Positions 7,781 to 21,820 of a DNA stretch of 64,000 bases are shown here, piece by piece. The DNA comes from a bacterium (lineage in GTDB: Bacteria; Patescibacteriota; Minisyncoccia; Moranbacterales; DUUL01). The notes under the pieces were generated by a model, which did not search any database, was not told where the DNA came from, and saw only the letters and a list, made by a program, of their open reading frames with translations. The position numbers and the translations under genes are program-made. The DNA lies in NCBI GenBank assembly GCA_018675685.1, contig JABGXP010000014.1, forward strand, positions 17,288 through 81,287, written 5' to 3'. Within the stretch, counting starts at the first letter, position 1. Every line of letters starts with the position of its first letter.

Positions 7781-7939
7781 ACAGTGCTATAGGAAAAATA
7801 AAAAGAATAGCCGAGAGCTCTTTTTTCGATAGATAAATTAAGTAAAAAATAAAAAAGATTCCTAATTTTTTTAGGTTGAATTTTTTGTATAGCTAAGCTA
7901 TAATTGGAGCAACTATTAAAAATTAGTAAAGCCAAGAAA

Positions 7940-9772
7940 ATGTTTACAGCCGATGAATTGAGGGAAAAGTATCTGGAGTTTTTTAAAGAAAAGAATCATG
8001 CCATTATTCCTTCAGCCTCAATTGTTCCAGAAAATGATCCAACAACACTTTTTATCACGGCTGGAATGCACCCCTTGGTGCCATATCTAATGGGCGAAAA
8101 ACACCCGCAAGGAACACGTCTTGTGGATACTCAAAAATGTATTCGCACGATTGATATTGATGAGGTTGGTGACACTACCCACCATACATTTTTTGAGATG
8201 TTGGGAAATTGGTCACTTGGGGACTATTTTAAAAAAGAGGCAATCGCTTGGAGTTGGGAATTTTTGACTGACGAAAAGTGGCTTGGATTAGATAAAAATC
8301 GAATTGCCGTTTCTGTTTTTGAGGGAGAAAACAAAGGGAAGGACAATGAAATTCCTTTTGACAAGGAGGCGTATGGAGTATGGAAGGAAATCTTTGAAAA
8401 AAATAATTTACCAATAGAAAGAATTACTCGACTTGATCGAGAGGCTAATTGGTGGGGACCAGCAGGAGAGACAGGCCCTTGTGGACCAGACAGTGAAATG
8501 TTCTATTGGGTTGGTGACGAAAAGAATGTCCCAGAAAGCTTTAATGATGATAATGATTCGTGGGTTGAAATTTGGAACGATGTCTTTATGGAGTATCACA
8601 AAAATGAAAAAGGCGAATATGTGAAGATGGAAAAACAAAACGTGGACACCGGAATGGGGCTTATCCGAGTCCTAGCAGCACTTAACGGTTTGGACGACAA
8701 TTATAAAACAAGTTTGTTCGTGCCGATCATTGAGAAAATAGAGAAACTTTCTGGTTTTGAATATGGGGATGGAACGGATGAAGAATGTGTTCAGGAGAAA
8801 GGTCAGTGTTGGGTAGACACTAGAAAATCAATGCGAATTATCGCTGATCATATCAAGGCTGCAGTCTTTATGATTGCTGATGGCGTGGAGCCGGCTAATT
8901 CTGACAGAGGTTATATCTTGCGACGGTTGATTAGACGGGCTGTGAGACAAGGGCATGTGATTGGAGTTGAAGAGAATTTTACAGTTAGTATAGCAATCGT
9001 TGTCCAGGGGTTATATGAAAATATTTTCCCAGAAGTGCTGAACAAAAAAGTTTTAGCGGAACTAGAGAAAGAGGAAGAGAAATTTAGAAAAAGTCTTGAA
9101 AATGGTTTGAAGAAATTCGAAAAAGTTAAAAGTGGTTTAACAGGGAAAGTAGCCTTTGATTTATTTCAAACATATGGATTTCCGATTGAAATGATCAAGG
9201 AAGAAGCCAAATTAAAACAAATTAAGTTTACTGAAAATGAAGAGAGGGAATTTGAGGCGGCACTTAAAAAACATCAAGAGCTTTCAAGAACAGCATCTGC
9301 TGGAATGTTTAAAGGTGGCTTGGCTGACACAGGAGAAGAGACGAGGCAATTGCACACAGTAGCTCATTTGATGCTTTCAGGGCTTCGAAAAGTTCTTGGG
9401 GAGCACGTGCATCAAAGAGGTTCTAATATTAATGGTGAGCGGGTTCGTTTTGATTTTTCGCATGGCGAGAAAATGACGGATGAGGAAAAGAAGGCAGTTG
9501 AGAATTATGTAAATGAGGCAATCGAGGCAAAAATTCCTGTTCAAATGAGTGAAATGAGCGTTGACGAAGCGAAAACAAAAGGTGCAGAAGGTGCATTTGA
9601 GAATAAATATGGAGATGTGGTTAAAGTTTTTGCAGTTGGTGAGTACTCGACGGAGATTTGTGGAGGACCACATGTTGAAAATACTGCTGATATCAAGGGT
9701 AGATTTAAGATTAAAAAAGAACAAAGTTCAAGCAGTGGAGTGCGGAGAATAAAAGCTATTTTAGAGAGATAG
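7940..9772 (+). CDS. alaS: Alanine--tRNA ligase, short form without the C-terminal C-Ala/DHHA1 region
   Basis: The track ORF starts at a TTG at 7904; the ATG at 7940 gives MFTADELREKYLEFF, aligning with AlaRS N-termini. Class II catalytic core; editing domain with HTVAHLM...H and GGPHV motifs; the ORF stops right after the editing domain. Confidence 0.9.
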   Translation: MFTADELREKYLEFFKEKNHAIIPSASIVPENDPTTLFITAGMHPLVPYLMGEKHPQGTRLVDTQKCIRTIDIDEVGDTTHHTFFEMLGNWSLGDYFKKEAIAWSWEFLTDEKWLGLDKNRIAVSVFEGENKGKDNEIPFDKEAYGVWKEIFEKNNLPIERITRLDREANWWGPAGETGPCGPDSEMFYWVGDEKNVPESFNDDNDSWVEIWNDVFMEYHKNEKGEYVKMEKQNVDTGMGLIRVLAALNGLDDNYKTSLFVPIIEKIEKLSGFEYGDGTDEECVQEKGQCWVDTRKSMRIIADHIKAAVFMIADGVEPANSDRGYILRRLIRRAVRQGHVIGVEENFTVSIAIVVQGLYENIFPEVLNKKVLAELEKEEEKFRKSLENGLKKFEKVKSGLTGKVAFDLFQTYGFPIEMIKEEAKLKQIKFTENEEREFEAALKKHQELSRTASAGMFKGGLADTGEETRQLHTVAHLMLSGLRKVLGEHVHQRGSNINGERVRFDFSHGEKMTDEEKKAVENYVNEAIEAKIPVQMSEMSVDEAKTKGAEGAFENKYGDVVKVFAVGEYSTEICGGPHVENTADIKGRFKIKKEQSSSSGVRRIKAILER

Positions 9773-19414: not shown

Positions 19415-19627
19415 ATGGCAGTACCAAAGCAAAGGCATAACAGAAGTCGAACACGAAGAAGACGAGGCGGACATGACAAACAAAAAGCTATTTCTTTTGT
19501 TAAATGTTCTAATTGTGAAAAGGAGATCGAAGCACACAAGCTTTGCCCTTTTTGTGGTTCATTTAAAGGCAGAGAGGTTGTAAATATGACAGCCAAAGTA
19601 AAAAAAGTCGAAAAGAGCGATAAATAA
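19415..19627 (+). CDS. rpmF: 50S ribosomal protein L32
   Basis: MAVPKQRHNRSRTRRRRG N-terminus and a CxxC...CxxC zinc ribbon. Confidence 0.9.
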   Translation: MAVPKQRHNRSRTRRRRGGHDKQKAISFVKCSNCEKEIEAHKLCPFCGSFKGREVVNMTAKVKKVEKSDK

Positions 19628-19682: not shown

Positions 19683-20330
19683 ATGGGGAGCAGACATCTT
19701 TCACGTTCAATAGCAATGCAAAGTCTTTATGAATGGGACTTTAACAATGTTTCCGACAAGGGAATGGAGGCAATTTTGCGAAATAACCTTAAAGAATTTG
19801 GTTCAAATGTAGACGACGACAGCTTCACCAGGAAGCTTGTTTTTGGAATTTTAGAAAAGAGGGAAATAATTGATCCTATTATTGAAAAGTGTGCACCGGA
19901 ATGGCCTCTTGCTCAAATTACAATTGTTGATCGAAATGTTTTACGTCTAGGAATTTATGAGTTGATGTTTGGGAGCTATGATGAGGCTCCACCGAAAGTT
20001 GCTATCAATGAAGCAATTGAACTTGCGAAAGCCTTTGGCGGTGAAAGTAGTGGAAGATTTGTAAATGGAGTTCTAGGAACTGTTTATCGCGAAATGGGAG
20101 AGCCTATGAAGGAGGATTCAACTGAAGATGGGAAGATACGTCGAGAAAAAGTTTTGGGCGTAGAAACAGACGACCCAAAGAAGAAGGCTACCAAAAAAAC
20201 AAAAAAAGCTGTTGTCCAAGAAGAGAAAAAGGCAAAAAAAGAAAAGAAGGATGATGGAAAAAAGGCGAAGAAGGTTGTGAAAAAAGTTAAGAAAGAAGAA
20301 AAGAGGATTGATGCTAGTGATAAAGAATAA
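19683..20330 (+). CDS. nusB: Transcription antitermination factor NusB with a ~75-aa lysine-rich C-terminal extension
   Basis: The NusB core runs through the ALYEW-like helix region to ...GVLGTVYRE; the tail is KKKATKKTKKAVVQEEKKAKKEKKDDGKKAKKVVKKVKKEEKRID. Confidence 0.85.
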   Translation: MGSRHLSRSIAMQSLYEWDFNNVSDKGMEAILRNNLKEFGSNVDDDSFTRKLVFGILEKREIIDPIIEKCAPEWPLAQITIVDRNVLRLGIYELMFGSYDEAPPKVAINEAIELAKAFGGESSGRFVNGVLGTVYREMGEPMKEDSTEDGKIRREKVLGVETDDPKKKATKKTKKAVVQEEKKAKKEKKDDGKKAKKVVKKVKKEEKRIDASDKE

Positions 20331-20441: not shown

Positions 20442-21137
20442 ATGGAAAAAATTAAGAAACTTGCGAAAAAAATAGAAATAGAATTTGATAATATAGAGCT
20501 TCTGCAGGAAGCAATGACTCATCGTTCATATCTCAATGAACACAAAGACTACAAGTTTGATCAAAATGAGAGGATGGAGTTCTTGGGTGACGCAGTCTTA
20601 GAGTTGATAGTCACAGAGCATTTATATTTGAATTATGGAAATCCAGAAGGGGAGCTTACTAATTGGAGAGCATCTTTGGTAAAAGGAGAAATGCTTGCTT
20701 TTGTTGGTGATGAAATTGGAATCGAAAAATATCTATTGATGTCAAAAGGAGAAAAACGAGACACAGGGAAAGCCAGGCAATATATTCTAGCAAATGCAAT
20801 GGAGGCAATTATTGGAGCTATTTATCTTGATAAGAGTCAGGGGTATGATAGTGCTAAAAGGTTTATTGAAAAATGGATCATCGTTAAATTGCCAGAAATT
20901 CTTAAAACAAAAAGCTACTTGGACCCAAAGAGTTATTTTCAAGAGAAAGCCCAAGAATTTGAGCAGACCACTCCTCACTATGAAGTTTTGGAAGAATGGG
21001 GCCCTGATCATGAAAAAATCTTTTTGATGGGAGTGTTTTTGGGAGATGAAAAAGTGGCAGAGGGGAAGGGTGACTCTAAACAAGAAGCTCAACGAACTGC
21101 TGCAGAAAAAGGACTTGAAGCAAAAAATTGGAAATAA
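20442..21137 (+). CDS. rnc: Ribonuclease III
   Basis: RNase III signature ERMEFLGDAVLEL and a C-terminal dsRBD. Confidence 0.9.
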   Translation: MEKIKKLAKKIEIEFDNIELLQEAMTHRSYLNEHKDYKFDQNERMEFLGDAVLELIVTEHLYLNYGNPEGELTNWRASLVKGEMLAFVGDEIGIEKYLLMSKGEKRDTGKARQYILANAMEAIIGAIYLDKSQGYDSAKRFIEKWIIVKLPEILKTKSYLDPKSYFQEKAQEFEQTTPHYEVLEEWGPDHEKIFLMGVFLGDEKVAEGKGDSKQEAQRTAAEKGLEAKNWK

Positions 21138-21180
21138 TAGTTTGAAAATCAAAACCCAATAGTTTATTTCGAAAGGAAAA

Positions 21181-21216
21181 AGGGATTGTCTTGAAATTAA
21201 GACAATCCCTTTTTAG
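21181..21216. terminator. Bidirectional rho-independent terminator (rnc on plus, small Cys ORF pair on minus)
   Basis: Perfect hairpin GGGATTGTCTT-gaaatt-AAGACAATCCC followed by TTTTT on the plus strand; the minus-strand ORF stop lies 18 nt away. Confidence 0.7.
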
Positions 21217-21233
21217 TATCCAGATAGGGTCTT

Positions 21234-21386
21234 TTACGCAAAGCTTTTCCTTGCTTTGTAGGGGCAGTTATGACATTTACTGCCAAGGGATCCTTTGATT
21301 GCAAGTTTTCTTTTTTCGATGCAATTCGGACTTCCTGGTTCATGAGGGCAGTCCTGTGGTTTTCCATTTGCCATAATGGACTTCAT
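21234..21386 (-). CDS. Hypothetical 50-aa cysteine-motif mini-protein (MKSIMANGKPQDCPHEPGSPNCIEKRKLAIKGSLGSKCHNCPYKARKSFA)
   Basis: Below the 60-aa cutoff of the track. The ATG at 21386 is preceded by GGAGG at 9-nt spacing. Four Cys (C-x9-C ... C-x2-C). Its start overlaps the stop of the upstream ORF as ATGA. Confidence 0.45.
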   Translation of the reverse strand: MKSIMANGKPQDCPHEPGSPNCIEKRKLAIKGSLGSKCHNCPYKARKSFA

Positions 21387-21586
21387 AAATAAAATCCTCC
21401 TTGTTTCCTAGTTTGTTTCTTATTGGGACAGTTGTGACATAAACTATCTTGTAGTTTCATTGCCTGTCGTTGTCTGTTTGTGCAAGCTTTGCCATCTAAC
21501 TTTAGGCAACACCTTCGAATCTTTATTTTTTGACCACGAAGGCGGTTTATTACATTGTGGACAGGGAAAACTGGTGTGACTTTCAT
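21383..21586 (-). CDS. Hypothetical 67-aa cysteine-motif mini-protein, upstream paralog (…SLCHNCPNKKQTRKQGGFYL)
   Basis: The ATG at 21586 is preceded by AAGGA. It shares the CHNCP motif with the downstream mini-ORF. Its TGA stop overlaps the next ATG (translational coupling). Confidence 0.4.
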   Translation of the reverse strand: MKVTPVFPVHNVINRLRGQKIKIRRCCLKLDGKACTNRQRQAMKLQDSLCHNCPNKKQTRKQGGFYL

Positions 21587-21820
21587 TTTGAATCCTTTGT
21601 AAAAGATTTTTGAGGAACTTTTTATTTATTAGATTATAGCACGTTTTTTATTAAATGTAAAGGGTTGAGAATACAATTATTTCATTCAATGGAAAAAGAT
21701 TATTTTCCGTTGTTAAGAGAGGTTTATTGTAGTATAATGCAAGAGTATCAATGAAATTTTGTCTTGTTTGCACAAAATTTTGTTTTATTGAAAATAAGGA
21801 ATAAAAAGAAAGAGAAAAAA

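Follow-up and report, generated by a model that had tools for sequence, protein, structure and literature searches.

A candidate accessory cassette for two small, basic, cysteine-rich proteins between rnc and smc in Moranbacteria

Introduction

The closest described systems to the locus reported here are the C(P)XCG proteins of Haloferax volcanii, such as HVO_2753 and HVO_0758. As presented in PMC11241148 and PMC10716476, these are single-domain proteins of <70 aa that are often basic, carry four Cys residues as two ligand pairs and mostly have no assigned function. For small Cys4 mini-proteins, zinc binding is common but not universal, as established for the C(P)XCG set (PMC11241148); according to the title of that report, several predicted zinc-finger mini-proteins bind no zinc. 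Small size, strong basicity and a Cys4 arrangement also characterize the zinc-ribbon ribosomal proteins bL32, bL33, bL36, bL31 and uS14 type Z. These ribosomal proteins bind RNA. To our knowledge, the small proteomes of CPR bacteria are essentially unexplored.

Here, we analyzed two short genes, ORF A and ORF B, found in a 64-kb stretch of DNA (the whole of which is called the window below). Their products resemble the Haloferax proteins in being shorter than 70 aa, in appearing to consist of a single domain and in carrying four Cys residues as two pairs without an assigned function, and they share with the ribosomal zinc ribbons a very basic composition.

Results

The minus strand of the window carries ORF A followed head to tail by ORF B, between rnhB, tRNA-Leu, rpmF, nusB and rnc at one end and smc at the other (Table 1). 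A sequence-only reading of this DNA had described two minus-strand mini-ORFs of 67 and 50 aa joined by an ATGA at 21383-21386, a GGAGG motif of B's own within the end of A, and a terminator that works in both directions and also serves rnc. The coordinates of the ORFs and of the ATGA were confirmed, and so was the GGAGG motif (21400-21396). The predicted promoter of the cassette matches the consensus at 11 of 12 positions and was the top-scoring site of the region; transcription would start near 21626. At the other end, the hairpin folds with -22.5 kcal/mol (z -5.2) on the minus strand and -26.1 kcal/mol (z -5.8) on the plus strand. Since a T-run is present on each strand, we counted it as bidirectional, that is, as a predicted intrinsic terminator common to the cassette and the convergent rnc, in agreement with the earlier description.

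Table 1. Positions of the cassette and its surroundings in the window
Feature	Position	Strand	Remarks
bL32 gene	19415..19627		
nusB	19683..20330	plus	215 aa
rnc	20442..21137	plus	Pfam label on identical public contig
Hairpin, inverted repeat I1 (predicted terminator)	21177-21214	both	16 bp, T-run on both strands
56-aa ORF (P0006)	21197..21367	minus	In the reading frame of A
ORF B	21234..21386	minus	50 aa, ATG start, pI 9.6
ATGA junction	21383-21386	minus	A stop TGA (21385-21383) overlaps B start ATG (21386-21384)
ORF A	21383..21586	minus	67 aa, ATG start, pI 10.6, 16 K+R
Inverted repeat I2	21385..21401 with 21613..21629		17 nt, 82% complementary
SD of ORF B	21396..21400	minus	GGAGG, within the 3' end of A, 9 nt 5' of B ATG
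5' UTR	21587..21626	minus	~40 nt; 5' end at the predicted transcription start
SD of ORF A	21597-21593	minus	AAGGA, 6 nt 5' of A ATG
Predicted cassette promoter, sigma-70 type	21633..21661	minus	TTTACA, 17-nt spacer, TG-extended TATAAT
Promoter-like site	21710..21738	plus	TTGTTA, 17 nt, TATAAT
smc	ATG 21821	plus	True start; Pfam label on identical public contig

Orthologous pairs of A and B were recovered at the rnc-smc site of two other lineages, so that the carriers are the window, L078 (UBA2772, identical to the metagenome contig L087) and L085/L086 (Logan assemblies). The conservation of the pair in related genomes, on which the sequence-only reading had hinged, was thus borne out. In all three lineages, the rnc-smc gap measures 687-776 nt and holds a promoter, A, B and a terminator hairpin. 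The promoter 30-mer CTTTACATTTAATAAAAAAYGTGCTATAAT is kept in each of them; among 87 sequences compared, it was not found at the rnc-smc site of any non-carrier, and its single other match, right at the limit of 6 mismatches, lies elsewhere in L022. The hairpins located 3' of B in L085 and L078 differ in sequence from that of the window and are equivalent in shape.

Several features of the surrounding DNA were recorded alongside. The mechanically called ORF of smc begins at a TTG (21764); a start reading MFLKKLEIIGF is conserved in all relatives and corresponds to the ATG listed in Table 1. The promoter-like site on the plus strand and conserved sequence upstream of smc suggest that smc may have its own promoter, divergent from that of the cassette. 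NusB carries an extremely Lys-rich C-terminal tail of ~70 residues (KKKATKKTKKAVVQEEKKAKKEKKDDGKKAKKVVKKVKKEEK...), and the equivalent gene in L085 encodes 234 aa. The inverted repeat I2 joins the 5' UTR to the SD and start region of B. Long-range pairing between the 5' UTR and the B ribosome binding site through I2 was considered and rejected: its duplex energy was no better than that of shuffles (fraction 0.11), and the pairing is absent in L085 and L078.

We then examined the cysteines. Cys makes up 0.95% of the residues in the long ORFs of the window, compared to 8% and 7.5% in the two mini-proteins, an ~8-fold excess over the window proteome (P ~1e-3 and 5e-4). The Cys residues of ORF A are at positions 26, 27, 35, 50 and 53 and form a scaffold C26-x8-C35-x14-C50-x2-C53, while that of ORF B is C13-x8-C22-x15-C38-x2-C41. 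A pattern C-x8-C-x14/15-C-x2-C is hence common to both, and the "C-x9-C" previously given for the first Cys pair (C13/C22 in B, C26/C35 in A) was a miscount. The CHNCP motif is present in a K/R-rich context in both window proteins, as quoted before. It is not conserved as such, since the orthologues read CHDCP, CNSCP, CHACK and CLNCK, and the invariant part of the knuckle is C-x2-C alone. Pro follows the last Cys (C-x2-C-P) in 4 of the 6 family proteins and is absent in both L078 proteins (CHACK, CLNCK).

All six proteins are basic (pI 9.5-10.6, with 10-19 K+R versus 2-9 D+E). The scaffold C-x8-C-x14/15-C-x2-C within a basic cassette protein of 50-90 aa was found in 5 of the 6; the exception is L078 A, which reads C-x10-H...C-x2-C. 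The proposal that A and B are paralogues held up in two comparisons. By BLASTP, A matched B with an E value of 5e-4. Alignment of the family profiles with hhalign gave an E value of 1.1e-4 and a probability of 56%; the aligned region of 34 columns brings the four Cys of the two families into register. We consider the paralogy of A and B to be reasonably supported by these alignments, although not overwhelmingly.

Comparison of the orthologues allowed us to assess whether the ORFs are coding. The A orthologue in L085 (P0003, real start GTG 2985) is 42% identical to A of the window and has all four Cys, whereas that in L078 is 22% identical and keeps C23, C60 and C63 plus H34, two of the four Cys being lost. 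The B orthologues have 51 aa in L085 (47% identical) and 69 aa in L078/L087 (about 40%). Conservation of the Cys positions among homologues was therefore complete for B, with four Cys retained in 3/3 lineages, and partial for A (2/3), L078 being the lineage without two of them. In at least one lineage, A may thus do without the scaffold; alternatively, its L078 copy may be decaying. Identities at the three codon positions between the window and L085 were 0.65/0.69/0.37 for B and 0.58/0.57/0.40 for A. That conservation is lowest at the third position argues for selection on the protein sequences of A and B. No such codon signal was seen for L078 A versus the window (0.45/0.49/0.48). Both proteins evolve rapidly: pN was 0.32-0.47 for B and 0.40-0.59 for A, compared to 0.05-0.07 for rnc and 0.13-0.15 for smc, with synonymous sites saturated in all four, so that the protein divergence of A and B is 3-10 times that of rnc and smc.

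Both ORFs are led by an SD in all three lineages. The SD before A is GGAGG in L085 and AGGAG in L078, and purine-rich SDs precede B in L085 (AAAGGGGA) and in L078 (GGAGGAAAGGAG). The junction of A and B differs among the lineages, with an out-of-frame overlap of 68 nt in L085 and of 50 nt in L078, and the ATGA is specific to the window. Translational coupling, as suggested previously, is plausible, since B starts within A or at its end; the ATGA itself is not a conserved coupling device, given the longer overlaps elsewhere and the presence of B's own SD in every lineage. We also considered whether A and B might be fused or joined by a programmed frameshift. B lies in the -1 frame relative to A in the window and in the +1 frame in L085, which rules out a conserved frameshift fusion.

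The second gene turned out to be inconsistently annotated in public data, which is a practical finding in its own right. Public gene calls for B comprise the 50-aa product, a 46-aa product, a 56-aa ORF in another frame (P0006), which some pipelines call instead of B, and a 129-aa read-through product on short contigs (P0007) in which the TGA stop of A is read as Trp. The NCBI entry for B is a hypothetical protein (MBT4251201.1 and others). We rejected P0006 and P0007 as gene-caller artefacts, because the 56-aa frame is not open in the orthologues and TGA terminates 4 of the 50 long ORFs of the window. Taking together the codon-position asymmetry, the conservation of the Cys residues, the SDs in every lineage and the closure of the rival 56-aa frame, we conclude that ORF A and ORF B are genuine protein-coding genes.

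Searches against family collections did not place these proteins. None of the six A/B-family proteins matched Pfam at E values up to 10. HMMs of the ribosomal zinc ribbons bL32, bL33, bL36, bL31 and uS14 from Pfam and NCBIfam matched 0 of the 6, so that the earlier statement that no ribosomal zinc-ribbon protein corresponds to them was correct and extends to the other families catalogued in Pfam and NCBIfam. The likeness to a zinc ribbon that had been read from the spacing was not upheld: a second CxxC (C(P)XCG) knuckle is absent in A and B, and no Gly follows the single one. With only one CxxC knuckle, these proteins are not classical zinc ribbons, and their metal binding cannot be read off by analogy.

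In NCBIfam, B, which is small and basic like Rmf/CrpP, gave a local match to that family (NF041886) around G-S-K-C-x-x-C-P-Y, with 15.8 bits against a cutoff of 28 bits (E 0.008), spanning residues 32-46 and 15 of the 39 profile positions. The four orthologous proteins of L085 and L078 had no match to NF041886 at E values up to 10, and A had none either. We rejected membership of B in Rmf/CrpP: the match is sub-threshold, is not repeated in any orthologue or in A, and is attributed to chance. PDB sequence profiles and Foldseek returned nothing usable for A or B. The AlphaFold2 models were of low confidence (pLDDT 60 and 54) and had no fold match; they place a helix straight after Cys2 and the C-x2-C where the next helical turn begins, and were set aside as too weak for structure-based inference. 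On the strength of these searches, A and B are assigned to an uncatalogued family that matches no known one.

To determine the distribution of the cassette, we used Rnc as an anchor and obtained 80 loci, mostly labelled Candidatus Moraniibacteriota or Patescibacteria. In many of these, rnc and smc are co-directional and 10-260 nt apart, the gaps having been tabulated for L005-L084. A regular-expression and tblastn scan of the 80 related rnc loci found the A/B pair in L078 only, and at the rnc-smc site of the remaining ~75 related Moranbacteria loci the cassette was missing, with either a short gap or other accessory genes in its place. Even L005 and L006, the nearest sister genomes, lack the cassette, which is thus not essential. 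Since the contents of the gap vary among relatives, it is a variable slot in Moranbacteria, and the cassette is an accessory insertion confined to one subclade. Other occupants of the gap were a HAD-like hydrolase gene in L005 (4821..5435), a truncated remnant of this L005-type gene in L006 (4871..4996), and a LexA-like (S24 peptidase) gene with a 104-aa ORF in L007 (5166..6151).

Beyond this site, an HMM search of 1.84 billion representative proteins returned three clusters only, which correspond to A, B and the L085 A orthologue. Word-indexed protein searches with A or B singly recovered only the query itself, a profile search added orthologues only, and two metagenome scans added only L087, the duplicate of L078. 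A stretch in L042 (~7830..8080, minus) reads as Cys/Tyr/Val/Met-rich repeats in all three frames (CYVFYAMCSMLCVLC...) and is probably a DNA tandem repeat in a Moranbacteria contig.

Discussion

We give about an even chance to the reading that A and B are a lineage-specific pair of metal-binding mini-proteins that contact nucleic acid or a partner protein. Their two SD-led ORFs, together with a strong predicted promoter and a terminator, form a self-contained accessory cassette that was inserted in antisense orientation between rnc and smc in a single small subclade of Candidatus Moraniibacteriota. Each protein would fold round one metal ion, most probably Zn2+, in a loop-helix-helix unit whose ligands would be Cys1, located in the N-terminal loop, Cys2, with which one helix begins, and the C-x2-C, with which the following helix begins. 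The Lys/Arg-rich helix and tail may then contact a polyanion, such as RNA, DNA or an acidic protein surface. As the start of B lies in A or at its end in each of the three lineages, both proteins would come from a single mRNA and probably work as a pair. The genes themselves, their paralogy, the conserved Cys scaffold, the expression signals and the narrow distribution are seen in the data, whereas we infer metal binding, the nature of the bound partner and the A-B pairing from the sequences. Against the metal and nucleic-acid reading stands the lack of homology of A and B to any characterized zinc- or nucleic-acid-binding family. A bolder version, in which A and B form a zinc-stabilized heterodimer and represent a hitherto unrecognized class of CPR-specific, rapidly evolving RNA- or nucleoid-binding mini-proteins, perhaps acting on the ribosome, RNase III, SMC, or in phage or host-organism conflict, is a speculation that we consider very unlikely.

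The rapid divergence and patchy distribution could also point to an accessory module of conflict or addiction (phage or host conflict, or of a toxin-antitoxin-like type), rather than to a housekeeping nucleic-acid binder. Indeed, the slot in which the cassette comes and goes hosts HAD-like (L005) and LexA-like (L007) genes, the proteins diverge far more than those of the flanking genes, and the unit is compact, with two overlapping genes behind a strong promoter. However, this divergence fits vertical descent, with synonymous sites saturated in the cassette and the flanks alike, and A and B are paralogues of each other. Paralogous products are unusual for toxin-antitoxin pairs. PHROGs and PADLOC yielded nothing credible for any of the six proteins, and neither these nor Pfam and NCBIfam gave a credible match to a toxin, antitoxin or defence protein. 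Relatives of A and B were not found among IMG/VR viral contigs, GenBank phages or PLSDB plasmids, and no flanking repeats or mobility genes were found around the cassette. We regard a conflict module as unlikely.

The conserved Cys residues themselves are open to another interpretation, in which they hold an Fe-S cluster or Fe in a rubredoxin-like manner, or in which C-x2-C serves as a redox dithiol. These CPR cells are taken to be anaerobic in this interpretation, and the C-x2-C-P found in 4 of the 6 proteins recalls the C-P ending of ferredoxin cluster motifs. That Pro is missing after Cys4 in both L078 proteins, though, and neither CxxCxxCxxxCP nor CxxCG...CPxCG motifs are present; no Pfam model of ferredoxin or rubredoxin matched at E values up to 10. 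The extreme basicity of A and B is also atypical for small electron carriers, and we hold an Fe-S or redox function to be distinctly unlikely.

Could the ORFs instead be non-functional, with the locus giving rise to a non-coding or antisense RNA, or representing a decaying remnant that insulates rnc from smc? The disagreement of gene callers (46-, 50-, 56- and 129-aa products), the tiny size of the family and the L078 copy of A, without two Cys and without a codon signal, would be in line with this. Moreover, the whole cassette transcript folds better than shuffles (z -5.0), in part through the terminator. Rfam detected two tRNAs only and nothing in the cassette, however, and the pairing of the UTR with the B ribosome binding site is neither significant nor conserved. 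The ORFs remain open in an AT-rich genome, and the codon-position asymmetry, the in-register Cys residues and the SDs recur in three lineages. This explanation seems to us very improbable. We give hardly any weight to A and B being exported cationic disulfide peptides or RiPP precursors, a variant of the "precursor/partner system" mentioned in the sequence-only reading: their products are small, cationic, Cys-rich tandem paralogues, but their sequences show neither a hydrophobic signal nor a leader segment, the genes around them (rnc, smc, nusB, rpmF and rnhB) include no radical-SAM or lanthipeptide enzyme, protease or ABC exporter, and the cassette has its own terminator, so that nothing else is co-transcribed.

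If the reading as metal-binding mini-proteins is correct, a small uncatalogued family would be added to those of CPR bacteria. The analysis also provides an example of a short gene pair, below the usual ORF cutoffs, that was validated by synteny and codon-position statistics alone. Its wider significance is limited by the narrow distribution, the dispensability of the cassette and the lack of a functional handle; nothing marks the pair as a new type of system, and we regard it as a modest curiosity.

Compared to known systems, A and B come close to the ribosomal zinc ribbons in overall character, and the bL32 gene of the window lies ~1.8 kb from the cassette. The ribosomal proteins differ in having two CxxC knuckles or a C-x2-C-x12-C-x4-H arrangement, while the spacing of A and B is another one, and the restriction of A and B to three lineages is incompatible with a core ribosomal protein. 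With the Haloferax C(P)XCG proteins, A and B have no sequence relationship, and they carry one C-x2-C together with a C-x8-C instead of two C(P)XCG knuckles. Unlike the Haloferax proteins, they are bacterial, from the CPR, and are encoded as a tandem pair of overlapping paralogues for which zinc binding is predicted.
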